Source: a virus (taxonomy: Duplodnaviria > Heunggongvirae > Uroviricota > Caudoviricetes). From it: a DNA stretch of 9,220 bases. This document shows, piece by piece, positions 1 through 9,220 of the stretch (its first letter is position 1; the number at the start of each line of letters is the position of its first letter). The DNA is taken from IMG/VR virus record IMGVR_UViG_3300039367_000033, positions 1-9,220 of that record; one strand, given 5' to 3'. Below the pieces are notes generated by a model. The model was not told the origin of the DNA and did not search any database. It was given only the letters and a program-made list of their open reading frames with translations. The translations under genes and the position numbers were made by a program.

Positions 1-186
1 CAAATTGGAACTTCTCAATGGCTTAACACCCATCAACAAGAAGCCTTCATATCCCACACTTTTAGAACCCAGTTTTTTAACACTGCTCAATTCATGTGGC
101 AACAGCAAACCTTGTCACGTCCAATTAGCCGGAAGGACTGTGCTCAATTTGTCACAGTTCGCTTTCTTAATTCTGGAGGTCAATGA
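1..186 (+). CDS. 3' end of an upstream gene running in from the left edge (partial, product unknown)
   Basis: Frame 1 is open from nt 1 to a TGA at 184-186 that overlaps the ATG at 186-188 of the ABC ATPase gene (TGATG). A second frame (5..199) is also open, so the frame choice is uncertain. AT-rich like the 5' part of the following gene. Confidence 0.3.
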   Translation, partial: QIGTSQWLNTHQQEAFISHTFRTQFFNTAQFMWQQQTLSRPISRKDCAQFVTVRFLNSGGQ

Positions 187-1094
187 TGACACTACTTGAC
201 ATAAATCATGTGGACTACTGTTACAACGAAGGAACGTCACCTACTATTCATAACATTAGTCTAACTGTCTGTCCGAATTCAACAACTGTCATTATAGGTC
301 CTTCAGGCATTGGCAAGACCACATTATTAAACTTGATCGCCGGTTATCTAAAACCCAGTCAAGGAACTTTAACCATGAACGGCAAATCAATAACAGGGCC
401 ATCTTGGAAGCGCGGCGTTGTTTTTCAAACAATGGCTCTTTATCCTTGGTTAAATGTCCGTGATAACATTTTGTTTGGTCCAAAAATGCGTCATCAATCT
501 TCAGACGATTTTACCATGCTATTAGAAAAAGCTGGATTAACTCATTATGTTAATCGCCCAATTTATACACTCTCAGGTGGTCTGAAACAACGCGTTGCCC
601 TTGTTCGCGCGTTCATCAACCATCCTCCGTTACTCATGTTAGATGAATCGTTTGGAGCTCTAGATAACCATACACGGGCAGAGATGCATACACTATTGTT
701 TGATCTCTGGCGTGCTACTCAAAATGCTATGATTATCATCACTCATGATATTGATGAGGCGCTACGGCTGGCAGAACATCTGGTATTGATGGATCACGGT
801 GAAGTGGTGCAGCAGGGCAATCCGCTGACGATGCTGACTCGTCCGGCGAATGATTTTGTTCGCCAGTTTTTTGGACGTAGTGAACTGGGTGTGCGCCTGC
901 TTTCGTTACGTAGTGTGGCGGATTACGTGCGTCGCGAAGAACGTGCAGAAGGTGAGGCACTGGCAGAAGAGATGACGCTACGCGATGCGCTCTCCCTGTT
1001 TGTCGCGCGGGGATGCGAGGTGCTGCCGGTGATGAACACGCAGGGCCAGCCTTGCGGCACGCTGCATTTTCAGGATCTGCTGGTGGAGGCGTAA
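186..1094 (+). CDS. yehX: ABC transporter ATP-binding protein: C-terminal ~115 aa look like the YehX/OpuCA-type tail ([11 protein letters not shown] plus a CBS-like region); N-terminal nucleotide-binding domain is AT-rich and looks TauB/SsuB-like
   Basis: ORF 183..1094. GGAGG at 175-179 sits 6 nt before the ATG at 186, so 186 is preferred over 183. Walker [11 protein letters not shown]-loop VVFQ, signature LSGGLKQR, Walker [14 protein letters not shown]-loop ITHD. Followed 4 nt later by a permease gene. Symbol applies to the 3' portion only; the gene appears mosaic. Confidence 0.8.
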
Positions 1095-1098
1095 ACGT

Positions 1099-1830
1099 AT
1101 GAAGATGTTGCGCGATCCGCTGTTCTGGCTCATTGCTCTGTTTGTGGCACTGATTTTCTGGCTGCCTTACAGCCAGCCGCTGTTTGCTGCCTTGTTCCCA
1201 CAACTGCCACGCCCCGTTTATCAGCAAGAGAGTTTTGCAGCTCTGGCACTGGCTCATTTCTGGCTGGTGGGAATTTCGAGTTTGTTTGCGGTGATCATTG
1301 GTACTGGTGCCGGAATTGCTGTCACTCGCCCTTGGGGCGCGGAATTTCGTCCACTGGTGGAAACTATTGCCGCCGTTGGACAGACTTTTCCGCCCGTTGC
1401 AGTGCTGGCGATTGCCGTTCCGGTGATCGGCTTTGGCCTGCAACCGGCGATTATCGCCTTGATCCTTTACGGTGTGCTACCCGTCCTGCAGGCGACACTT
1501 GCCGGGCTGGGATCGATTGATGCCAGCGTGACCGAAGTTGCCAAAGGCATGGGAATGAGTCGTGGTCAGCGACTGCGTAAGGTCGAGCTACCGCTGGCGG
1601 CTCCGGTGATTCTGGCGGGCGTGCGAACTTCGGTGATTATCAACATTGGTACGGCGACGATCGCCTCAACGGTAGGGGCCAGCACGCTGGGTACGCCCAT
1701 CATCATCGGGCTTAGCGGATTTAATACCGCGTATGTGATCCAGGGGGCGTTACTGGTGGCACTGGCGGCGATCATCGCAGACCGCCTGTTTGAAAGGCTG
1801 GTGCAGGCGTTCAGCCAGCACGCAAAATAA
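1099..1830 (+). CDS. yehW: ABC transporter permease of the osmoprotectant (OsmF-YehYXW) system
   Basis: 243-aa strongly hydrophobic protein with multiple predicted membrane spans, directly downstream of the ATPase gene; GGAGG upstream of the ATG; GC-rich enterobacterial codon usage. Confidence 0.88.
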
Positions 1831-1918
1831 AGGTATAACCTGCGAGCATGACGCCACCAATTCCGCCTAACGCCATAAACAGGAACAGGGCGATGACTCC
1901 AATTTTAGCTATGCGCAT
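1811..1918 (-). CDS. yohO: small membrane protein, 35 aa ([35 protein letters not shown]), YohO-like
   Basis: ATG at 1916-1918 (minus) preceded by AAGGAG with 7-nt spacing; single hydrophobic helix; TGA at 1811-1813; overlaps the yehW 3' end by 20 nt on the opposite strand. Not in the ORF track because it is short. Name is from memory of the K-12 locus. Confidence 0.55.
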
Positions 1919-1977
1919 AATGCACTCCTTATGTTAACGAAAGGATTGTACAGTAAAGCGCATTTGTTAACGAATCA

Positions 1978-2664
1978 TTAAATGCCGAGTGGGAAAATAT
2001 CATGGCCTTGTTCCTGCCAACTGGTGAGTTGCTGCTGTTGGGCGGAGGTTCGATTTTCACCGCACCACACCAGCAATGTACGGCCTTCGAACAGTTCAGG
2101 GCGTAGTTGATTGAGCGAGTGGGCGAGGACATCAATGCGCCATCCTTGTTGACTGGCAATCCAGCCCTCCAGCCACAGACGGGTGGTATCCTGAATATTC
2201 CAGCCAACCACCAGCGCATCTTTACCCTGTTTTTTACGTGCCGAAGCCAGACAAATGGCAATGTAGTTGATCAGTACGCCGTCGAGGATCGCCAGCAGCG
2301 CCTGGAGAGTCGGTTGTTGGCACTGAAGCCGTCGGCGCAGTGGAATGAACAGATGTGTGGTGAGTGTCTGGGCGGGGTAATCCTGACCGCGCTCTTTGAT
2401 CCACGTTCGCAGGCTATGCAGATTGCCGCTTTGCAGGTAAGTCAGTAATGTTTCTTGCTGATCGCGCCAGCCGTTCTGCACATCAACATTTTCATTACTG
2501 AGCAGCATTTTTACTTTGCTGACCTGCACGCCATTGTCGATCCAGCGTTTGATCTCGCGGATCCGGTCAATATCGGCATCGTTGAACAGCCGATGACCGC
2601 CGTCTGTCCGTTGCGGTTTCAGCAATCCGTAACGCCTCTGCCACGCGCGTAACGTGACAGGGAT
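1978..2664 (-). pseudogene. mlrA: mlrA (yehV) MerR-family regulator of csgD/curli, 5'-truncated by prophage insertion
   Basis: Minus-strand frame encodes ...PVTLRAWQRRYGLLKPQRTDGGHRLFNDADIDRIREIKRWIDNGVQ... through to TAA at 1978-1980. Upstream of about nt 2664 the frame reads SVSLPLI and hits a stop at 2695-2697 with no ATG or GTG; the only start in frame is an internal TTG at 2623-2625. From memory, intact MlrA begins MALYTIGEVALLCDINPVTLRAW, so the first HTH helix is missing. Confidence 0.8.
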
Positions 2665-2699
2665 TAAGGGTAAACTAACTGATTTTACAAGTTTTTATT

Positions 2700-3986
2700 T
2701 TACCCCACTTTCTTATGGGGCATACATGGGACACTTTCAGATAGTCTTTTGTTAAGGAGTTCTATCTGTTCGTGATTGTTGTCTTTCATCCATGCTCCGT
2801 AAACATTGAATACCATTTGTGCGTTTGTGTGGCCCATCTGGCTTGCGATAAAACTAGGATTAGCTCCAGCGGCAAGTGACCAGCATGCATAAGTATGCCT
2901 GGATTGGTACGATTTTCTGTGTCTCAGACCTGCGCGTTTTAAGATACTTGTCCATGACTCCCTGATGGAGTCAACCTTATAGTGCGGTCCGGAAAACTGC
3001 CGCTGTTTTATTACCTGAGGACTAAAAACAAAAGTGCATTTATGCACAGTACTTCTCCCATATTCCCTCTGCTTTACCTCTACAGAATGTTGCTTTCCAA
3101 GCATGGTCATTTCCGCCTGACTTTTAAGAGCATCAATAGCTGGTTGAACCAGATGAATTGTCCTTCCGGTGCCAGCATCGGTTTTTGGTGGAGTGAATTC
3201 GCCAAGTTTTGTATAATTCCTACGGATGGTTATAGTCCTTGCTTTAAGATCTATATCTTCCCATGCCAGCGATACCAGCTCCCCGTGACGAATACCCGTG
3301 TATACAGCGAGAATCCACAGGTTTTTTGTTTGTTGATGACGGCAAGCCTCAATAAAACGAATAAATTCGTCACGGGTGAGAGGATCTGGTTTTACCTTGG
3401 ACTTTTTTAAGGGTGCCAGACCGTTAAATGGGTTTCCTGAGGTATAACCATTATCTGTTGCAAATTGAAACATTCCAGCTATGGTTGTCATATAGTAGTT
3501 TACTGTGACCACTGAGCGCCCTTTTATGGAAGAAATCTTTCCATTAGAAAGCTTTTGGTAACCGGTCAACAAATCTCTCCTTGCGAAAAGTAAATCCTCT
3601 TTTGTTATGGATGAAACCAGTTTTTTCTCACCCAACATAGGCAACATGTTTTTAATTACTGACTGGTAACGATTAAGTGCATTCGCACAAATCTCAATTT
3701 TCTTAAGGTCCAACCATTTTTCCGAAAGTGCCTTAACGGTTATCTCTCTTTTTCCCAGACCAAAGTGTTTCAGGTTAGGGGAATTAGGGAACTGTGTGGC
3801 GTAGTCGAAACTCCCCATTCTGATTGCAAAACAAACGGAAGTGCGAAGTTCACCTGCGATCTTCCGGTTTTTGGCGGTGTCAGGAACACCGAGGTTTTCT
3901 CTGACACGTTTGCCATTATAGTGAAACCATATACGGAGTGATCCTCCATGGTTTTCAACGCCTGTCGGGTATGATACGTTACTCAT
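2700..3986 (-). CDS. int: phage integrase, tyrosine recombinase family (428 aa)
   Basis: ORF 2700..3986 with ATG at 3984-3986 and GGGAGG upstream. C-terminal catalytic-type motifs (LRHRKSYQSRHTY ... MGHTNAQMVFNVYGAW with a candidate active-site Tyr). Position next to the chromosome junction is typical of int next to attL. Confidence 0.93.
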   Translation of the reverse strand: MSNVSYPTGVENHGGSLRIWFHYNGKRVRENLGVPDTAKNRKIAGELRTSVCFAIRMGSFDYATQFPNSPNLKHFGLGKREITVKALSEKWLDLKKIEICANALNRYQSVIKNMLPMLGEKKLVSSITKEDLLFARRDLLTGYQKLSNGKISSIKGRSVVTVNYYMTTIAGMFQFATDNGYTSGNPFNGLAPLKKSKVKPDPLTRDEFIRFIEACRHQQTKNLWILAVYTGIRHGELVSLAWEDIDLKARTITIRRNYTKLGEFTPPKTDAGTGRTIHLVQPAIDALKSQAEMTMLGKQHSVEVKQREYGRSTVHKCTFVFSPQVIKQRQFSGPHYKVDSIRESWTSILKRAGLRHRKSYQSRHTYACWSLAAGANPSFIASQMGHTNAQMVFNVYGAWMKDNNHEQIELLNKRLSESVPCMPHKKVG

Positions 3987-4019
3987 TAAACCTCCCAGAC
4001 GTCCAGGAGCATTAACAGG

Positions 4020-4274
4020 TTAACCGGAACTTGCATTTTTGGCACCTGGTTGTTTCTGGTTTTCGATCCATCGCATAATTTCTTCGATGTTGTACAGGCA
4101 TTCACTGTAATGCCCAGGATCACCTTCTACAGCGTAATGGCGGTATTCTTTTCCCTGCATCCATGACTTTCTCCTGGCCCGCTCGATGGTGCCGGGCTTT
4201 AGCCCTGTTGATGCAATAAGGACTCTCTCCGTACACCATTTGCTGGGGGTTATCTGATAGATGATTGTCTGCAT
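4020..4274 (-). CDS. excisionase-like / small DNA-binding protein (84 aa)
   Basis: Immediately upstream of int in the same orientation (33-nt gap); ATG at 4272-4274 with GAGG 5 nt upstream; small basic protein with a W...R...G..EY pattern loosely resembling lambda Xis. Function inferred mostly from position. Confidence 0.55.
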   Translation of the reverse strand: MQTIIYQITPSKWCTERVLIASTGLKPGTIERARRKSWMQGKEYRHYAVEGDPGHYSECLYNIEEIMRWIENQKQPGAKNASSG

Positions 4275-4292
4275 GCCAACCTCATAAAACTT

Positions 4293-4427
4293 TCATCCAC
4301 GGCAGTGGCACCACACGTCAAACATTCGCTTCACAACTTCACGACAGTAGAAACCGTCACCATCTTGCGTCAGGTCATAGCGATTGCCGTAACGCTGGTG
4401 GACCCATCGTTCAAATGCTTTATTCAT
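4293..4427 (-). CDS. hypothetical small protein, 44 aa (MNKAFERWVHQRYGNRYDLTQDGDGFYCREVVKRMFDVWCHCRG)
   Basis: Not in the ORF track. ATG at 4425-4427 preceded by AAGGAAG, 3 nt after the TAA of the upstream gene; fills the gap between the 80-aa gene and the xis-like gene; ends TGA at 4293-4295. Confidence 0.45.
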   Translation of the reverse strand: MNKAFERWVHQRYGNRYDLTQDGDGFYCREVVKRMFDVWCHCRG

Positions 4428-4430
4428 TCT

Positions 4431-4673
4431 TTACTTCCTTTTTATGGCTCGTAATTTTTTCAGGTGCTTTTCCTGCTCAGTATCCGCGAGAATTTTGCGG
4501 TACTCCTGGTGGTCAATATGTTCGAACAGGCTGTTGAACTCAGTGATGCGTACCCGCCCGGAGCGCCCGTCCATCCTCCGAAAGAATACCGAGTGAACAG
4601 TACTGCGAGTAATTTTTACCGGGTAGCCAGCACTATCGGTGTATATCTGCCCGCGTTGAATCAAAGCGAACAT
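4431..4673 (-). CDS. hypothetical phage protein (80 aa)
   Basis: ORF 4431..4709 begins with TTG; the internal ATG at 4671-4673 (MFALIQRG...) is preferred because the TTG extension would overlap the coupled 27-aa ORF upstream. Basic C-terminus (KHLKKLRAIKRK). Confidence 0.6.
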   Translation of the reverse strand: MFALIQRGQIYTDSAGYPVKITRSTVHSVFFRRMDGRSGRVRITEFNSLFEHIDHQEYRKILADTEQEKHLKKLRAIKRK

Positions 4674-4677
4674 GTGG

Positions 4678-4761
4678 TTATCCCCATCGACAAATCGAGA
4701 ACACAACAAACGCTGCTGCGAATACCACCCCCAGAGTTACGATTGCATCAGGCCAGCTCAT
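4678..4761 (-). CDS. small hydrophobic peptide, 27 aa (MSWPDAIVTLGVVFAAAFVVFSICRWG), probable single-pass membrane peptide
   Basis: Not in the ORF track. ATG at 4759-4761 overlaps the TGA of the DUF551-like gene (ATGA); strong AGGAGG 7 nt upstream; TAA at 4678-4680 is 4 nt before the ATG of the next gene. Confidence 0.4.
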   Translation of the reverse strand: MSWPDAIVTLGVVFAAAFVVFSICRWG

Positions 4762-5303
4762 TGATTCACCTCCTGCGGCGGTTCTGGCAGCGGCATCCAG
4801 TGGGTTACCTCCTTGAGATACAGGTCTTCGCCATCACCGTCATCCCAAGTGGGCTTGCCATCATTAAACCAGTCGCCATATACGCCGACCTGAGTGTTGG
4901 GGATGTTTGGTGGGTAGTTGTTTTTAAAGTCAGCAGCTAACACATAGCATTGTCGCTCTCCCATTTCTGGCATTCGCTCACTACAGCTTATCCAACTCTC
5001 CGGAGTTACCGGAGAGTTGCCAGCCTCATACGCCACACGCATCCAGTGCATAAGCGTTTCAGTGCTCACACAGCCGCAATCAACATCAATTTTGCCGTGC
5101 TGCTGTTCCAGCCATTGCTCAAAAGTTAACTTGTAAGTTTGGCTTACAGGTTCTGCACTATCAGCTTCGCGCCGCTTCTGTAGCTCTGCTGCCATCGCTC
5201 TCACGACTTCAACTGGTGCCCTTGCCGCAAACTCTATGTTGGTGATCAGCTCATTAAGATATTGCTCGCCTGGATACTGTTTCTTATCGGTTATAGTGGT
5301 CAT
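4758..5303 (-). CDS. DUF551-domain phage protein (181 aa)
   Basis: C-terminal region WISCSERMPEMGERQCYVL...VTHWMPLPEPP matches the DUF551 pattern as I recall it (W-I-S-x-x-D/E-R-L-P ... T-H-W-M-P-L-P-E-P-P). ATG at 5301-5303 overlaps the upstream TGA (ATGA); GAAGGA upstream. Confidence 0.75.
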   Translation of the reverse strand: MTTITDKKQYPGEQYLNELITNIEFAARAPVEVVRAMAAELQKRREADSAEPVSQTYKLTFEQWLEQQHGKIDVDCGCVSTETLMHWMRVAYEAGNSPVTPESWISCSERMPEMGERQCYVLAADFKNNYPPNIPNTQVGVYGDWFNDGKPTWDDGDGEDLYLKEVTHWMPLPEPPQEVNQ

Positions 5304-5815
5304 GCTGCGTTTCCTTCTTTCTTATTAACAATTACACCGTCATATATTTCATTAAGGTGTCCTCTTAGCTCCATGCGCCTTAATGCAGATAACATGTAAT
5401 CGCATTCAACCTGCTTATTCCCAGTAAATGGCTTATCGTCAGAATTACCCCAACAGCAATTACCCCTGGGCCATCCATGTACTTTCCGTACTCTTCCGTT
5501 AACAACGTGAAGTAATCCCCAGCCGGGAGGTAAATCCTCAACTGAAATAATTTCCGGCTCACTAATAAAGAATCGCCAGTCGCCCATGCCAAGTGAGGGA
5601 TTTTTACGGAAACGCTTTTTTCTATCTGCCAACAAGTCAGCACGAGAACACTTCGCCTCTATCAGGCATGATGCTGAATTTCTGAATCCCATAGCATCTG
5701 GCTGTTCTCCGGTACTGGTTACAGCAACAAAGCGGTCATGAAAGCAAACCTTGAACCCGTTGCGCTTAAGGAACTTGTACGCAATCTGACAGAGTTCGTG
5801 GTGTGTTAACGCCAT
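5300..5815 (-). CDS. putative PD-(D/E)xK nuclease-like phage protein (171 aa)
   Basis: ATG at 5813-5815 preceded by AAGGAGAG (junction motif copy 1). Motif GEQPDAMGF...CLIEAKCSRADLL fits the PD...E-x-K signature of restriction-endonuclease-like / VRR-NUC folds. The TTG-extended ORF 5300..5875 is rejected. Family assignment is by eye. Confidence 0.7.
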   Translation of the reverse strand: MALTHHELCQIAYKFLKRNGFKVCFHDRFVAVTSTGEQPDAMGFRNSASCLIEAKCSRADLLADRKKRFRKNPSLGMGDWRFFISEPEIISVEDLPPGWGLLHVVNGRVRKVHGWPRGNCCWGNSDDKPFTGNKQVECDYMLSALRRMELRGHLNEIYDGVIVNKKEGNAA

Positions 5816-5816
5816 A

Positions 5817-6257
5817 TCACTCTCCTTTCCCATGAAGCATGGCGGCGCGGCAGGCGTTCCATATTTCGGCAGCAATATCGCGCTCGCTATCGGTTAATTT
5901 GTACGTGGAAACATAGCCAGAGAGCATTTCTACGTTTTCCGGAGTTGCTTCTTCCGGCACTACCGGCGCTGGCAAGGCAGCGTGATAGTAGAGTGGCATA
6001 GTTTTGTACAGTGGTTCGCCAGGACTTCCGTCAACCTGATTCCATTCTTCAACCCAGGCATCAACAACCGCTTTGCTGGTTGATACATGTTCTTCTGAAT
6101 CTACATTTTGTCCTGATATACAGAACATAACTGCTTCTGCTTCCAGCGATGCCAGTGCGATTTCATAAGCCCGACGCTCAATATTGTCTCGGACGTCCAG
6201 GCTGCCTATACGCTCTTTGATTTCTTTAATCAGTTCTTTGTCGGTTAAAGTGGTCAT
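5817..6257 (-). CDS. hypothetical phage protein (146 aa, acidic, ends KGE)
   Basis: ATG at 6255-6257 with GAGGA upstream, overlapping the TGA of the upstream gene (ATGA). N-terminus MTTLTDK resembles that of the DUF551-like protein (MTTITDK). Confidence 0.75.
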   Translation of the reverse strand: MTTLTDKELIKEIKERIGSLDVRDNIERRAYEIALASLEAEAVMFCISGQNVDSEEHVSTSKAVVDAWVEEWNQVDGSPGEPLYKTMPLYYHAALPAPVVPEEATPENVEMLSGYVSTYKLTDSERDIAAEIWNACRAAMLHGKGE

Positions 6258-6463
6258 TTGTTAATCCTCAAAACTTTATGCCCGGGCGCAAAAGCACGCG
6301 TTTTGTCTTTGCTTATTCGCCAGCCATCCTTGCGCGCCTCTTTTGCACAACCAGACCATGACGTACCGATATACTCACCGAAGTCTGGCGACTTATATTT
6401 GCCATCTGTACACTGGAGGCAGTCACAATAGAGATGCATGGTGTAACTTGCGGCAATAGCCAT
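6254..6463 (-). CDS. small Cys-rich protein (69 aa; CDCLQC...C...H, possible zinc-binding)
   Basis: ATG at 6461-6463 preceded by the exact junction motif AAAGGAGAGTGATATGGC (copy 2). The TTG-extended ORF 6254..6535 is rejected. Confidence 0.7.
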   Translation of the reverse strand: MAIAASYTMHLYCDCLQCTDGKYKSPDFGEYIGTSWSGCAKEARKDGWRISKDKTRAFAPGHKVLRINK

Positions 6464-6464
6464 A

Positions 6465-6659
6465 TCACTCTCCTTTAGTGCGCAAATGGTTTTTCCAGCG
6501 GTTTTGCGCCGCGCTGGGCTTTTTGCAAAAACCACAATCCATCATCCCGTAATATTTCATCAACCCCATCCGTCGGTTGCTGAGTCTCACCCACTGCCAG
6601 ACGCCAGGAGCGTTTCTACGAACTAACAGAATCTTTGCTTTACGGTTGTTGGTTGCCAT
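6465..6659 (-). CDS. small basic protein (64 aa, ends KGE)
   Basis: ATG at 6657-6659 preceded by the exact junction motif (copy 3); TGA at 6465-6467. Confidence 0.7.
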   Translation of the reverse strand: MATNNRKAKILLVRRNAPGVWQWVRLSNRRMGLMKYYGMMDCGFCKKPSAAQNRWKNHLRTKGE

Positions 6660-6660
6660 A

Positions 6661-7260
6661 TCACTCTCCTTTGATGCGAATGCCAGCGACGCGTAATGCG
6701 TGTTCTAGGTCAATCAGGTAAAGCCAACTGCCATTTTCTTTAGGTATCATGACATGTCGCTCATCTGCATTTATCGGGTGTCCATATCGAAGGTCGTAGC
6801 GAGTCGGTAATTGAACTTCCCGCGCTTCCAGTTCAGCAATACGCTTGCACCCATCAGAGATAACTCCCTCGTAATACTCGCGCTGCTCGTTGAGTTTTGA
6901 TTTTGCTGCTTCAAGCTCAACGAGCAGCTTCCCAACCGTAAGCGCAATATCCTCGTTCTCCTGGTCGCGGCGTTTGATGTATTGCTGGTTTCTTTCCTGT
7001 TCATCCAGCAGTGCCAGCACGGTAGCCGGGTTAGCCTCTGCTATGAATTCAGCGTTTGCATAAGCCTGAGCATCTGATTCAATCAGGCAGTTAACATGAC
7101 ATTCCGCAATCACGCCACCGGGTTCTCCTTTCCATTTTTGACAAACAAAAACTCCTGTTAAATTGCCGTGCTGGTTAACAGATGTATGCCCTACGATGTA
7201 GCTTCCTTTAGTTGCTTTCTCTGCCTTTTCACGCAGTGCCTGATAGTTAATCTCGCTCAC
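6661..7260 (-). CDS. Ea22-like early phage protein, paralog 1 (199 aa)
   Basis: GTG start at 7258-7260 overlapping the upstream TGA (GTGA), GGAGGA upstream. N-terminal MSEINYQALREKAEKAT... and ANAEFIAEANPATVLALLDE resemble ead/Ea22-like proteins as I recall them; central region has coiled-coil character; ends KGE. Confidence 0.75.
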   Translation of the reverse strand: MSEINYQALREKAEKATKGSYIVGHTSVNQHGNLTGVFVCQKWKGEPGGVIAECHVNCLIESDAQAYANAEFIAEANPATVLALLDEQERNQQYIKRRDQENEDIALTVGKLLVELEAAKSKLNEQREYYEGVISDGCKRIAELEAREVQLPTRYDLRYGHPINADERHVMIPKENGSWLYLIDLEHALRVAGIRIKGE

Positions 7261-7481
7261 TCTTCATCCTCCAAGTCGGCAACGGCGTCCATCACATCAG
7301 AACCGCGAATAACCTCAAAAGCACGGCAGGCCATTTGAAATACCAGTTGCTCTTGCGGGTGAGGAGACTCCCAATATTTGAAGCCTGGGCGATGCGTGTA
7401 CCCCATCATTGAATAAAAATCACCAGCAAGCTTAATCGCGGCATCGACAAGCTCTCTGTTAGTCATTCTTTTTCCGCTCAC
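7257..7481 (-). CDS. hypothetical small acidic protein (74 aa; 69 aa if the internal ATG at 7464-7466 is used)
   Basis: GTG at 7479-7481 overlaps the upstream TGA (GTGA), with AAGGAGG 6 nt upstream; same junction architecture as at 8702-8720. Confidence 0.65.
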   Translation of the reverse strand: MSGKRMTNRELVDAAIKLAGDFYSMMGYTHRPGFKYWESPHPQEQLVFQMACRAFEVIRGSDVMDAVADLEDEE

Positions 7482-8065
7482 TGGTTGCCTCCTTTGCGAA
7501 GCTGGGCGGCTAACTCATCACATATGTGCGTCAAAGAACAAAGTTTGATTGATGGATGTTCGCGCATCATCTCTACCCCCTGCGCCCGCACTTCAGACAG
7601 GAAAGCATCGGTGGCTGGCATATTTCCTGTTGCCTTCATTGCTTCCAAAATAACCAGAACGCCATCTCGCCCAATCTCCTCGCAGATAACCTCGGTGCTG
7701 TCGCCAACAACATCGCAAAATGCCTGAACTGCTTTACGAGCCAGCGCATTCTCCGCCACCAGCGCCGCGAGATTAGTCTCAAGCTCTGCAATTCGACACA
7801 TAGCATCAATATTTGTGTCCTCCAGGCGCTTAATTTCACCAAGCAGCTCCAGTGCAACCTTTGGGTTGAACGCGGCAACATGACGAGCGTTGTTCTCTGC
7901 ATTTTTCTGTCCATCAAAGCCGGTCCATTTGATAACGTCTTCACATCGTTCATCACCGGGCGTGTGCACCGCATAAGTACCAGTATCCGTCGAAATAAAT
8001 GCGACCCATTCGTCTGGTGTTGCCTTTTCTGCCGCCTCACGCAGTACCTGATAGTCAATTGTCAT
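7478..8065 (-). CDS. Ea22-like early phage protein, paralog 2 (195 aa; 198 aa if the ATG at 8072-8074 is used)
   Basis: N-terminus MTIDYQVLREAAEKAT and NARHVAAFNPKVALELLGE align with paralog 1. ATG at 8063-8065 overlaps the upstream TGA (ATGA), with AAGGA 8 nt upstream. Confidence 0.75.
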   Translation of the reverse strand: MTIDYQVLREAAEKATPDEWVAFISTDTGTYAVHTPGDERCEDVIKWTGFDGQKNAENNARHVAAFNPKVALELLGEIKRLEDTNIDAMCRIAELETNLAALVAENALARKAVQAFCDVVGDSTEVICEEIGRDGVLVILEAMKATGNMPATDAFLSEVRAQGVEMMREHPSIKLCSLTHICDELAAQLRKGGNQ

Positions 8066-8706
8066 TCTCGCCATCCTTCACAGTTGTAATCACTACAGCC
8101 TTCAAAATCATATGGGCTGTACTGCCAGGTTATTTTTCCGCAATGCGGACAATTCCAACGCACCTTCCCGCTTCGCGACTTCTTTCTTCTGTTCTGCTCT
8201 TTCAACCAGTCAGGCATGACCAAACCTGCGCCCTGAACCATTGTTCTGCGGTTAAAGTTATTGATATTGAACGTCCGGCGCTTTGCTGCATCAGCAATGG
8301 AAAATGGCAACCAAACTATTCCTGGTTCGTTTTTGTTGGCGACGCTAAAGATGGTCGCTTTACTGAAGTCATCTGTTGGCAATCCACCGTGTTGAAGCCA
8401 GTAAACATCATTGCCGTTCCAGCTACCTTTTTTGTAGGCCACATACGCAGTGCAATCTGACTCAATCAGGCTTTCTGTAGGGATGTACTGGCAATCAACG
8501 TGCCACACTGCCATTGCATCCACGCTATCCGCGCAAACAGGCTGATCGATATCTCGCCCACAATTCCAGGCTTTTTGGGCTTCTTCCAGCGTGTAAACAT
8601 GAGCGCGATCGATATCAGAACTGTAACCATTGCCGTTATGGCAATGGAATGAGGCGTTATTACCCACAGTTTCACGCAAGCACATCATGTAAAAACGGTT
8701 ACTCAC
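8062..8706 (-). CDS. hypothetical Cys/His-rich phage protein with C-terminal zinc-ribbon-like motif (214 aa)
   Basis: GTG at 8704-8706 overlaps the upstream TGA (GTGA), AAGGAGG 6 nt upstream; C-terminal CPHC-(x16)-CSDYNC; the longer TTG-initiated ORF 8062..8742 is rejected. No family recognised. Confidence 0.7.
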   Translation of the reverse strand: MSNRFYMMCLRETVGNNASFHCHNGNGYSSDIDRAHVYTLEEAQKAWNCGRDIDQPVCADSVDAMAVWHVDCQYIPTESLIESDCTAYVAYKKGSWNGNDVYWLQHGGLPTDDFSKATIFSVANKNEPGIVWLPFSIADAAKRRTFNINNFNRRTMVQGAGLVMPDWLKEQNRRKKSRSGKVRWNCPHCGKITWQYSPYDFEGCSDYNCEGWRE

Positions 8707-8942
8707 TGGATGCCTCCTTGGTGGAGTTGCGCTGCGATGCACGAAAAAAAAGACTCCCGTGTATGACTGTTAAGAGCTGGTGCGAACGCCTCGTTAAGAA
8801 CGGCGGCATCACAGCCGTCATCAATATAGAGCGCAATTTTTTTCTCCAGGCGCGCTTTGGCTTCCTGCAACTGCATACCCCGGCACGCACGCGGGATATA
8901 ATCAGCAATTTGAGCGATAGCTTTTTCGTTCTGTTTAAACAT
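8703..8942 (-). CDS. hypothetical phage protein (79 aa)
   Basis: ATG at 8940-8942 with GAGGTG upstream; overlaps the upstream gene end by 8 nt (ATGTTTAA). Confidence 0.65.
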   Translation of the reverse strand: MFKQNEKAIAQIADYIPRACRGMQLQEAKARLEKKIALYIDDGCDAAVLNEAFAPALNSHTRESFFSCIAAQLHQGGIQ

Positions 8943-9138
8943 GCTTCACCTCGATAGGCTTGATGGTGTCTAACAGCAGTCGGCGGCGCGTATTTTCTGC
9001 AAAATGGCGGCGTCCAGTTTCTTTGTGGTAAAACTCGTTTTTGCCAACGACCCACATCCGCTTTGTCTGGTGCAGTTTTTTTACCTGCGGACCGTCTCGG
9101 GTGATAACAATTCCTGTATGAGTTTTTATCACGCTCAT
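8935..9138 (-). CDS. hypothetical basic phage protein (67 aa)
   Basis: ATG at 9136-9138 overlaps a TGA that closes an open frame entering from the right window edge (ATGA); no clear SD, so expression probably depends on coupling. Confidence 0.6.
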   Translation of the reverse strand: MSVIKTHTGIVITRDGPQVKKLHQTKRMWVVGKNEFYHKETGRRHFAENTRRRLLLDTIKPIEVKHV

Positions 9139-9220
9139 TTTTTATTCTTCGGTGCTTTCGGCATTACTGCCCAGTGAGTGATATTGACGTTTTCAAGGTC
9201 CCCGACCTGAAATGTCCACA
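9135..9220 (-). CDS. 3' end of a further phage gene entering from the right edge (partial)
   Basis: A minus-strand frame is open from the window edge to TGA at 9135-9137 (...VGDLENVNITHWAVMPKAPKNKK*). A second frame is open to a TAA at 9164-9166, so the frame choice is uncertain. Confidence 0.3.
   Translation of the reverse strand, partial: WTFQVGDLENVNITHWAVMPKAPKNKK

Follow-up and report, generated by a model that had tools for sequence, protein, structure and literature searches.

The region at positions 6254-8706 of the window, the whole 9,220-nucleotide stretch analysed here (positions 1 to 9,220 of IMG/VR virus record IMGVR_UViG_3300039367_000033), belongs to the variable accessory part of the early leftward operon of a lambdoid prophage, which is integrated next to mlrA. 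The P22 'ea' genes and the lambda exo-xis region correspond to this region, which is composed of six independent gene modules, not of one system. We have high confidence in this identity and in the anatomy of the region as described here. All six genes are on the minus strand:

6254..6463, minus strand: p69, a 69-aa basic protein (pI 9.2) of PHROG 926 with a putative C3H zinc site
6465..6659, minus strand: p64, a 64-aa very basic protein (pI 11.3) of PHROG 1380 (phrog_1380, E=1.6e-39)
6661..7260, minus strand: p199, an Ead/Ea22-like protein (Pfam PF13935 Ead_Ea22, E=4.2e-40, 138 bits, residues 2-145)
7257..7481, minus strand: p74, a 74-aa acidic protein (pI 4.9) with one Cys (phrog_4132, E=8.7e-43)
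7478..8074, minus strand: p198, a second, divergent Ead/Ea22-like protein (Pfam PF13935, E=9.4e-20, 72 bits)
8062..8706, minus strand: p214, a 214-aa protein with a GTG start, of PHROG 2457 (E=3.5e-119), equivalent to Upf87.6 of phage P7

The limits that the earlier note had given for the region are exact, as the p69 stop codon ends at position 6254 and the GTG start of p214 is at position 8706. The two genes of ~200 aa inside these limits, p199 and p198, were not mentioned in it. A Shine-Dalgarno sequence precedes each of the six genes, and neighbouring stops and starts overlap or are 1 nt apart. Full-length homologs reaching down to 31-57% identity indicate that p69, p64, p74, and p214 are real genes. 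The placement of the region in an int-proximal early region was also right: an int gene, identified by Pfam Arm-DNA-bind_2 and Phage_integrase, and a xis gene, identified by DUF1233, are located downstream on the same strand. In the syntenic E. coli prophage L001, the genes run on via yfdS/R/Q/P-like genes to a divergent XRE/HTH repressor pair. Since the early promoter lies outside the window, we infer early expression from this synteny. A scan of the region gave no promoter or terminator matches above the shuffled expectation and no Rfam families. In parts, the stretch shares 95-98% identity with 933W, VT2-Sakai, and further Stx phages, the exact protein sequences of the region have already been deposited many hundreds of times, and 2,888 of 5,426 complete E. 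coli genomes match part of the region. It is routine and very common 'dark matter', present in over half of these genomes.

The lambda and Stx-phage exo-xis region and the P22 'ea' genes occupy the same position, on the int/xis side of the early left operon and on the same strand, and there, as here, small non-essential ORFs are interleaved with Ead/Ea22-like genes. Transcripts of the exo-xis genes are the earliest made from pL; the genes are non-essential and tip the balance of lysis and lysogeny (PMC8614690, PMC7093339, PMC10834534). The gene content differs, however. The conserved lambda block orf60a, orf63, orf61, orf73 is absent from the window, the characterised exo-xis proteins show no homology to p69, p64, p74, or p214, and the upstream genes in the syntenic prophage are yfdP-S-like and not exo/bet/gam.

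p199 and p198 share the Ead_Ea22 N-terminal domain with lambda Ea22 and P22 Ead. Both proteins score above the Pfam cut-off of 27 bits, they are 29% identical to each other across the N-terminal 149 residues, and the homologous genes are labelled 'ead/Ea22-like family protein' in RefSeq. Neither matched a PDB sequence at E<=1. In particular, their C-terminal parts match no PDB chain, including the solved C-terminal domain of lambda Ea22 (PMC10834534) if it is in the library, in agreement with the published variation of the C-terminal domains of Ea22-like proteins among phages (PMC7093339, PMC10834534). Lambda Ea22 itself is pro-lysogenic and forms a tetramer through a coiled coil (PMC7093339, PMC10834534).

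The independence of the modules was indicated by the gene neighbourhoods. The earlier note had called the genes a cluster, which they are not in a functional sense. A rival reading makes p69, p64, p74, and p214, with or without the Ead-like proteins, one co-functioning multi-gene zinc-protein system. The genes are adjacent and translationally coupled in the window, and one IMG/VR prophage has the identical arrangement at 99.97% identity. However, the neighbours are reassorted around 80 near-identical copies of p214 (>=97% identity), among which p69 was found in 22, p64 in 29, and p74 in 3, in many gene orders. At least 80% coverage of the region was reached by none of the complete E. coli genomes or phage records, p69 occurs on its own in virulent phages, and distant p214 homologs lie beside unrelated neighbours. 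A single co-functioning system is already contradicted by these data, and we consider it very improbable. An Ead-like gene follows p214 in 51 of the 80 loci. The same modules were found in varied combinations and positions across lambdoid, P22-like, epsilon15-like, and P1-like phages: they are in a nin-like position, after the replication genes, in HK225 and phiV10, and they are also present in the plasmid prophages P7, SJ46, and D6.

The boundaries of some modules are marked by an 18-nt junction repeat, which contains the Shine-Dalgarno sequence, a stop, and a start. Three exact copies are present in the window, against 0.01 expected:

6655..6672, minus strand: AAAGGAGAGTGATATGGC, exact copy at the p199/p64 boundary
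6459..6476, minus strand: AAAGGAGAGTGATATGGC, exact copy at the p64/p69 boundary
5811..5828, minus strand: AAAGGAGAGTGATATGGC, exact copy between p146 and the p171 form of a 191-aa ORF, outside 6254-8706

The exact 18-mer was found in 53 of 113 related loci. In TL-2011b, a p64 homolog is joined directly to a p171 homolog via the same junction. Its distribution suggests that the junction probably provides the short homology for module swaps between phages. The copy at 5811..5828 marks the other end of the p69+p146 insert.

The description of the cluster as Cys/His-rich was found to apply to p69 and p214 and not to p64 and p74. The Cys and His contents of p69 and p214 are 8.7% and 7.5%, with P=0.009 and P=0.0002 for Cys alone, against an E. 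coli background composition. The contents of p64 (4.7%, P=0.38) and p74 (4.1%, P=0.47) are no higher than that of the integrase (4.7%). Outside the region, p44 (11.4%) and p191 (7.3%) show an equal or higher enrichment.

In p69, the previously quoted CDCLQC is present at residues 13-18, together with H62, and these positions correspond to the following features:

6410..6427, minus strand: CxCxxC motif (C13, C15, C18) of p69, with all three Cys invariant in alignments A2 and A3
6278..6280, minus strand: H62 of p69 within 'APGH', the proposed fourth ligand, invariant in alignment A3

The family match is strong (PHROG 926 profile, E=1.7e-36). C13, C15, C18, and H62, and also P60, are invariant in 16 sequences from five phage lineages at identities down to 31%, so the zinc-binding look that had been noted for p69 is borne out by conservation. 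At position 57, p69 has an Ala, whereas 9 of the 16 sequences have a Cys, among them all six from the divergent phage copies. The pattern is therefore CxCxxC … (C)xxPxH, with ~40 residues separating the two halves, which is unlike the CxC…CxH spacing of SWIM. The SWIM zinc finger (CxCxnCxH) was rejected as a candidate, as none of the 16 members gave a Pfam match at E<=1. As judged from sequence, p69 looks like a genuine zinc-binding module with a putative C3H site.

The same conservation check failed for p64: at the positions of C42 and C45, homologs carry E, G, V, H, or I. Its invariant positions are N5-K9, S27-R30, and Q52-R54/K56, and it was found in 144 phage records. p74 aligns to the C-terminal half of the PHROG 4132 profile. 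Its full-length matches are in HK629, D6, and Klebsiella phages, and in Acinetobacter phage BS46 at 36% identity, and phiV10 carries a homolog as a stand-alone 74-aa gene (PhiV10p47). On the sequence evidence, metal binding via conserved Cys/His is predicted for neither p64 nor p74.

In p214, an α/β module of ~75 residues is duplicated in tandem and followed by a linker rich in Lys and Arg and by a putative C4 zinc ribbon:

8470..8703, minus strand: p214 module A, residues 2-79 (hhalign against module B)
8242..8454, minus strand: p214 module B, residues 85-155, a duplicate of module A (hhalign against module A)
8158..8211, minus strand: p214 basic linker DWLKEQNRRKKSRSGKVR, residues 166-183 (pI 11.6, charge +5.8)
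8065..8157, minus strand: p214 C-terminal putative C4 zinc ribbon (C186, C189, C204, C209; conservation in 121 relatives)

The duplication was detected by hhalign of the first against the second half of the 121-sequence family alignment (probability 97.7%, E=1.5e-12, 71 columns), and it can be seen directly in the sequences of distant homologs, for example P0315, with '…IPWPKAYVD' and '…IPWPKAEID'. The AF2 pLDDT of p214 is 93.6. The linker consensus KxxRRKxxxK is maintained family-wide. The C-terminal motif quoted earlier is present at residues 186-209, with the spacing CPHC-x14-C-x4-C, so that the 'x16' given for it was slightly off. Its conservation is high: C186, C189, and C204 are retained in 98% of the 121 relatives, and the motif with a fourth ligand, CxxC-x(12-18)-C-x(1-6)-[C/H], occurs in 115 of them. 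By contrast, the N-terminal Cys and His, which had also been counted toward zinc binding, are each retained in 2-45% only. Pfam gave only sub-threshold matches for p214, all of them generic zinc-ribbon models on residues 178-212. The C-terminus thus looks like a genuine zinc-binding module, a putative ribbon.

The p214 family profile gave 16 weak matches in the PDB, 9 of which are eL43, an rRNA-binding zinc-ribbon protein that was picked up from many species and aligned to the linker and ribbon (E=0.04-0.4). eL43/L37a and p214 residues 155-208 have in common a CxxC-x14-C-xn-C layout behind a Lys/Arg-rich segment, while the remainder of p214 has no counterpart there. Because these E-values are not significant, the likeness is one of layout and not of homology, and it may reflect only a generic 'basic tail plus C4 ribbon' composition. 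P7 Upf87.6, SJ46, IME10, Vibrio H20-like 'putative zinc finger protein', and F116 gp06 are true members of PHROG 2457 with p214 and show no difference in kind from it. Upf87.6 is 99% identical to p214, and for the Vibrio and Pseudomonas phage proteins the full-length identity is 27-46%.

The GenBank note on P7 Upf87.6 names a 'putative tyrosine protein phosphatase', and the local sequence FHCHNGNGYS of p214 has a superficial likeness to the HCxxGxxR signature. An enzyme of this kind is nevertheless extremely improbable, and it was refuted at the sequence level since the HC-x5-R(S/T) catalytic loop is unconserved. C22 is retained in 28 of the 121 relatives (23%), the position of the catalytic Arg is Tyr in 119 of them, and C-x5-R-[ST] occurs anywhere in the N-domain of only one. 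In addition, no phosphatase was found among the Pfam or fold matches of p214. This result removes the misleading note on the P7 record.

The earlier statement that none of the proteins could be assigned to a known family was too strong for the region as a whole, as two of the six genes belong to Pfam Ead_Ea22 and the four small proteins fall in PHROG families 926, 1380, 4132, and 2457 (p69, p64, p74, and p214, respectively). All four families are catalogued as 'unknown function', and in agreement with the same note, no confident homology to well-characterised proteins was found in Pfam, NCBIfam, PADLOC, PDB sequences, PDB folds, or BFVD. Specifically, the four proteins had no sequence match to PDB chains even at E<=10, and NCBIfam gave no matches whatsoever for the ten proteins scanned. 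The sole PADLOC match, p199 as CorA-like (E=0.005, 14 bits), was taken as spurious, with none for the other proteins.

Zinc proteins of comparable phage regions were compared as well. Lambda Ea8.5 is a small hybrid homeodomain/zinc-finger protein encoded between ea22 and xis, according to Kwan et al. (2013) as cited in PMC10789677. It is, like the putative zinc proteins p69 and p214, a product of the same region, but the region's four proteins do not match it in sequence, and no sequence or fold likeness to the solved Ea8.5 homologues was detected in the region proteins. Lambda Orf73, TraR, and DksA-type C4 zinc-finger proteins bind in the secondary channel of RNA polymerase (PMC9239242). They are C4 zinc proteins of a comparable phage region, and Stx phages have an annotated 'DksA-like zinc-finger protein' near homologous modules. 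In p214, however, the ribbon is at the C-terminus of an unrelated 180-residue body, not behind a coiled coil, and no DksA/TraR zinc-finger Pfam match was obtained for the region proteins or, at E<=1, for 37 p214-family and 16 p69-family members.

A function in anti-defence, in which one or more of p69, p214, p64, and p74 inhibit host immunity such as restriction-modification by binding a defence protein or masking DNA, is in our view rather unlikely. The genes are in an early, non-essential, fast-shuffling accessory region, although position alone cannot separate anti-defence from other early functions. p69 was found in 430 records of both virulent and temperate Enterobacterales phages, as a counter-defence factor would be, p214 homologs adjoin DNA methyltransferases in F116 and Vibrio phage D96a, and p74 is small and acidic. 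On the other hand, a signature-peptide search found the region proteins absent from the supplements of two accessory-gene functional screens and of a machine-learning anti-defence catalogue. The proteins also show no likeness to Lar/Ral, Ocr, or Ard-type proteins in NCBIfam, Pfam, or the PDB. For Lar/Ral-type restriction alleviation, the region gave no match in NCBIfam, which holds a Lar-family model, and no relevant match in Pfam.

Tuning of the lysis-lysogeny decision was also considered, with the proteins shifting the developmental decision or the timing of induction via host transcription or physiology, like lambda Ea22, Orf60a, Orf61, Orf63, Orf73, and Ea8.5. The operon position equals that of the exo-xis region, whose genes change lysogenisation and induction in published data (PMC3824215, PMC7093339, PMC8614690), and two Ead/Ea22-like genes lie among the modules. 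Members of the p214 family occur only in temperate phages and prophages, beside genes in the cro/cII position or recombination genes; distant p214 homologs lie in early operons and adjoin cro/replication, Gam/exonuclease, or DNA methyltransferase genes. p69, in contrast, is conserved in Ackermannviridae and Rogunavirus phages as well, which are strictly virulent and face no lysogeny decision, and none of p69, p64, p74, and p214 is homologous to a characterised exo-xis protein. Such tuning is likewise rather unlikely in our view.

The best explanation overall, which we hold with moderate confidence, is that these are independent, shuffling early accessory modules, each probably acting alone. 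The separation of the proteins with conserved putative metal sites (p69 and p214) from those without (p64 and p74), the domain architecture of p214, and the recognition of the genes as independent shuffling modules are the gains of this analysis, and together they allow a rational choice of candidates for functional screens. One attractive candidate is p69, which virulent and temperate phages have in common, and another is p214, whose family is large (866 clusters at 50% identity) and has no Pfam model or structural neighbour.

For the independent modules we tentatively propose a binding mechanism, possible rather than probable. Following infection or induction, transcription from the early promoter probably runs through the genes, and each product probably acts singly, by binding to a macromolecule of the host or the phage at an early stage of infection. 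As p69 is retained by virulent and temperate phages alike, it would be a zinc-stabilised binder of a target shared by enterobacterial hosts. In p214, the basic linker and ribbon may serve as a nucleic-acid tether, and the duplicated module may offer a surface for specific recognition or effector action. The conserved polar residues in the mildly acidic N-domain of p214 (Y28, D71, Q73, N99, D100, and R143) might just as well be those of an enzyme active site.

The region at window 6254–8706, for which the coordinates in the earlier note proved exact, contains six genes on the minus strand, and we consider its identity and anatomy as described here to be highly probable. The products are designated by their length in amino acids.

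Genes of the region
6254–6463, minus strand, p69
6465–6659, minus strand, p64
6661–7260, minus strand, p199
7257–7481, minus strand, p74
7478–8074, minus strand, p198
8062–8706, minus strand, p214 (GTG start)

A Shine-Dalgarno sequence is present at all six starts, and between neighboring genes the stop codon either overlaps the following start or is separated from it by 1 nt. Promoter-like and terminator-like sites did not exceed the shuffled expectation, and Rfam families, tRNAs, and tandem repeats were not found. Two genes of approximately 200 aa (p199 and p198), which were absent from the earlier note, fill a third of the region. The other four proteins had been described as Cys/His-rich; this applies to p69 and p214 but not to p64 and p74. 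The quoted motifs are all present in the sequence. P values were calculated with background frequencies of 1.16% (Cys) and 2.27% (His), and the integrase, with a Cys+His content of 4.7%, serves as a comparison.

Cysteine and histidine content of the four small proteins (Cys+His; P for Cys alone; P for Cys+His)
p69: 8.7%; 0.009; 0.03
p214: 7.5%; 0.0002; 0.003
p64: 4.7%; 0.17; 0.38
p74: 4.1%; 0.58; 0.47

Window bases ~739–2650 match the E. coli chromosome with ~98% identity, covering the 3' part of yehX, yehW, yohO, and mlrA (yehV), the last of which is a known attachment site of Stx phages. From window 2700 onwards, all genes are on the minus strand, including the following.

Prophage part of the window, minus strand, tyrosine integrase (Pfam Arm-DNA-bind_2 and Phage_integrase)
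Prophage part of the window, minus strand, excisionase (DUF1233)
Prophage part of the window, minus strand, DUF4222 and DUF551 proteins

After these genes, small genes run on to the window end. Among complete E. coli genomes that carry a prophage at the same site, L001 is the closest; its operon extends upstream via yfdS/R/Q/P-like genes and reaches a divergent XRE/HTH repressor pair. Since int and xis lie on the same strand and the L001 operon reaches the repressor pair, the region is placed in the int-proximal part of a lambdoid early leftward operon, in agreement with the location suggested previously.

Both p199 and p198 belong to the Ead/Ea22-like family (Pfam PF13935; 138 and 72 bits, respectively, with a cut-off of 27) and share 29% identity across the N-terminal domain. 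A PDB sequence relative was not found for either protein, which agrees with the published variation of Ea22 C-terminal domains from phage to phage (PMC7093339, PMC10834534). The Ea22 proteins of lambda and Stx phages are pro-lysogeny factors whose mechanism is unknown (PMC7093339).

The p69 protein matches PHROG 926 ("unknown function") over its full length. Homologs were detected by tblastn in 430 phage records, which include lambdoid and Stx phages, a Rogunavirus, a Klebsiella siphovirus, and four virulent members of the Ackermannviridae, namely Det7 (gp132), PhaxI, Menlow, and Dickeya phage Coodle. A lysis–lysogeny role for the genes of the region would be compatible with the macromolecule binding proposed below and is plausible, though less likely than not; for p69 itself, its occurrence in strictly virulent phages counts against a purely lysogeny-related role. 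In an alignment of 16 sequences with identities down to 31%, Y7, Y12, C13, C15, C18, G33, G47, W48, P60, and H62 are invariant, C39 is partly conserved, and H10 is variable. Position 57 is Ala in the window and Cys in 9 of the 16 sequences, including all six divergent phage copies. The proposal of a zinc-binding module thus withstood the conservation test for p69, since C13, C15, C18, and H62 do not vary, and the CxCxxC…PxH pattern behaves like a putative structural C3H zinc site. This pattern, and the absence of Pfam matches (E ≤ 1) for the 16 members scanned singly, led us to reject a SWIM finger; kinship to the p214 module was likewise rejected (hhalign probability ≤2%). Because divergent homologs start with MI(A/V/T)…, the 69-aa form is favored as the true product, and the 93–95-aa form of RefSeq 933W is not supported by the family alignment. 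In 933W (L004, 3546–3945), RefSeq uses an upstream start for the p69 homolog (ST933Wp08, 95 aa) and leaves the overlapping p64 homolog (3766–3945) without annotation; the family alignments favor separate 69-aa and 64-aa genes. In three annotated Ackermannviridae loci (L007, L008, and L011), the p69 homolog ends a conserved string (hypothetical protein, dCMP deaminase, 135-aa hypothetical protein, p69-like protein) and faces a head-completion gene. The layout is the same in Det7 with the genes unnamed, and the p69-like gene of Coodle is without annotation.

The p214 protein matches PHROG 2457 and is 99% identical to Upf87.6 of phage P7. Its family comprises 149 clusters in a 90%-identity collection; when 1.84 billion representatives at 50% identity were searched, 866 clusters reached E ≤ 1e-3. 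The members originate from Enterobacterales, Vibrio, Acinetobacter, Pseudomonas phage F116, Burkholderia phage phiE058, and a Methyloprofundus genome, and are named only "hypothetical" or "putative zinc finger protein". AF2 modeled p214 with confidence (pLDDT 93.6). Compared as profiles in a 121-sequence alignment, the N-terminal halves matched with an hhalign probability of 97.7% (E = 1.5e-12, 71 columns); therefore, residues 2–79 and 85–155 are tandem duplicates of one α/β module. A shallow repeat test on 37 close sequences (P = 0.002) was only suggestive, and the deeper alignment settled the duplication, which can be recognized on plain inspection of distant relatives, P0315 among them. The modules are followed by a Lys/Arg-rich linker (residues 166–183, pI 11.6) and a C-terminal ribbon. 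C186, C189, and C204 of the ribbon are kept in 98% of the alignment, and CxxC-x(12–18)-C-x(1–6)-[C/H] occurs in 115 of the 121 relatives with a shifting fourth ligand position. The Cys/His reading of p214 thus stands for the ribbon only, as all other Cys and His residues are kept in just 2–45% of the relatives, and judging from the alignment those in the body are incidental. Scanned singly against Pfam (E ≤ 1), 37 family members gave only generic zinc-ribbon noise. The longer relatives P0238, P0244, P0255, P0315, and P0247 had no Pfam match, and their only additional PHROG is another unknown. The sole recurring sequence resemblance was of the linker and ribbon to the rRNA-binding ribosomal protein eL43 (9 of 16 profile matches), at a sub-significant E = 0.04–0.4. 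In P7 (L003, 3181–3825), Upf87.6 is labeled "putative tyrosine protein phosphatase". This reading was rejected: C22 is present in 23% of the relatives, 119 of the 121 have Tyr where the catalytic Arg would be expected, and a single one carries C-x5-R-[ST]. The motif is variable across the family, so the label is misleading.

Neither p64 nor p74 is, from its sequence, a candidate for metal binding. In p64 (PHROG 1380, pI 11.3), both cysteines are replaced in homologs at 51–60% identity and the basic motifs NRKAK, SNRR, and QNR.K are invariant. The acidic p74 (pI 4.9) has a single cysteine, and its match to the PHROG 4132 profile covers the C-terminal half of that profile. It is annotated in phiV10 as a stand-alone 74-aa gene and has full-length matches in HK629, D6, Klebsiella phages, and Acinetobacter phage BS46 (36% identity). 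The possibility that p64 and p74 are gene fragments was rejected, as both are full-length stand-alone genes in other phages.

The six genes do not travel as the cluster proposed in the earlier note. At least 80% of the region was covered by none of the complete E. coli genomes or GenBank phages, and partial matches were found in 2,888 of the 5,426 E. coli genomes as well as in 469 phage records. In 80 IMG/VR loci with a p214 at least 97% identical to that of the window, its neighbors included p199-like genes (34), p64 (29), p69 (22), and p74 (3) in dozens of orders, and an Ead-like gene follows p214 in 51. In HK225 and phiV10, the modules occupy a nin-like position behind the replication genes; they are also carried by the P1-like plasmid prophages P7, SJ46, and D6. 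Distant p214 homologs likewise reside in early operons but with different neighbors. In an Acinetobacter prophage, these are cro, a cII-position gene, and DUF1376 replication genes; Vibrio phage D96a has Gam, an exonuclease, and a DNA methyltransferase at this place, and F116 has two methyltransferases. In F116, D96a, an Acinetobacter prophage (L108), and the fetched locus L002, no more than a few genes separate the p214 homolog from a gene of the DNA methyltransferase or PAPS-reductase family, a weak and unquantified hint of a link to DNA-modification genes in four unrelated phages. The gene arrangement is not unique, as L029 (IMG/VR UViG_2541047739_000008), the only record found with the same arrangement, matches window 3065–9220 at its positions 4487–10642 in one block with 99.97% identity. 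The region combines known, catalogued modules of the exo-xis/"ea" type in a new way; mildly new are the architecture assigned to PHROG 2457 and the wide distribution of the p69 family.

An exact 18-nt junction, AAAGGAGAGTGATATGGC, comprising a Shine-Dalgarno sequence, a stop, 1 nt, and a start, occurs three times in the window against an expectation of 0.01.

5811–5828, junction at the p146/p171 boundary
6459–6476, junction at the p64/p69 boundary
6655–6672, junction at the p199/p64 boundary

The p69 and p146 pair is thereby flanked by two copies. Of 113 fetched loci, 53 contain the exact 18-mer, among them 933W, P7, and TL-2011b; in the last, it links the p64 homolog straight to the p171 homolog, and PHROG 9263 merges the two. 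Such short conserved boundaries probably provide the homology for module exchange, in agreement with the classical picture of lambdoid mosaicism. The 191-aa ORF at window 5300–5875, compared with the fetched locus L018 (1195–1903), appears to be an approximately 171-aa gene starting at the junction ATG, and its true start is probably the ATG at 5815. The p171 product contains a D…ExK-like stretch (…DAMGF…IEAKC…) and weakly matches a PHROG labeled "DNA repair protein" (E = 0.006), which makes it a possible PD-(D/E)xK nuclease.

Scans with Pfam, NCBIfam, and PADLOC gave no matches for p69, p64, p74, and p214, and neither the single proteins nor the family profiles had a significant match among PDB sequences. 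Tests for membership placed none of the proteins in the Ea8.5, Orf73/TraR/DksA, Lar/Ral, SWIM, or phosphatase family. Every exact protein sequence is already public on ~400 to >1000 contigs, labeled "hypothetical" or "prophage protein". The PHROG numbers, Upf87.6, and the hea operon were not mentioned in the searched literature, and no relevant related work was retrieved by keyword. An anti-defense role for these genes, which would also be compatible with macromolecule binding, is in our view as plausible as the lysis–lysogeny role and likewise less likely than not; the signature peptides were not found in the supplements of two accessory-gene screens and one anti-defense machine-learning study.

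The data support co-oriented, stop-to-start genes whose internal promoter and terminator signals do not rise above chance, as well as metal-ligand motifs that are conserved in p69 and p214, a duplicated-module architecture of p214, and independent gene assortment. Expression probably proceeds by read-through from the early promoter, and the overlap of stops and starts suggests translational coupling. Tentatively, and with low confidence, we propose that each product alone would bind some macromolecule early in infection. Specifically, the basic linker and ribbon of p214 would tether the protein to nucleic acid and the duplicated module would confer specificity, p69 would be a zinc-stabilized binder of a target common to the enterobacterial hosts of virulent and temperate phages, and p64 may be a basic nucleic-acid binder.

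Two further features lie outside the region. Window 183–1094 encodes an in-frame hybrid ABC ATPase that switches near window 738 at the conserved "ITHDIDEAL" H-loop. Residues ~1–185 (GC 0.40) are nearest to Firmicutes proteins (Enterococcus dongliensis, 59%; Clostridium, 41–45%), and residues ~186–303 are identical to E. coli YehX. Window bases 1–760 matched none of the 5,426 complete genomes of E. coli, and a 38-mer was not found in GTDB representative genomes; the hybrid is due either to genuine horizontal replacement or to chimeric assembly. Within the prophage, the ORF richest in Cys+His (11.4%) encodes 44 aa with the C-terminus …WCHCRG and lies between xis and the DUF4222 gene (window 4293–4427), and L001 has an annotated 135-nt (44-aa) "hypothetical protein" CDS at the matching position.
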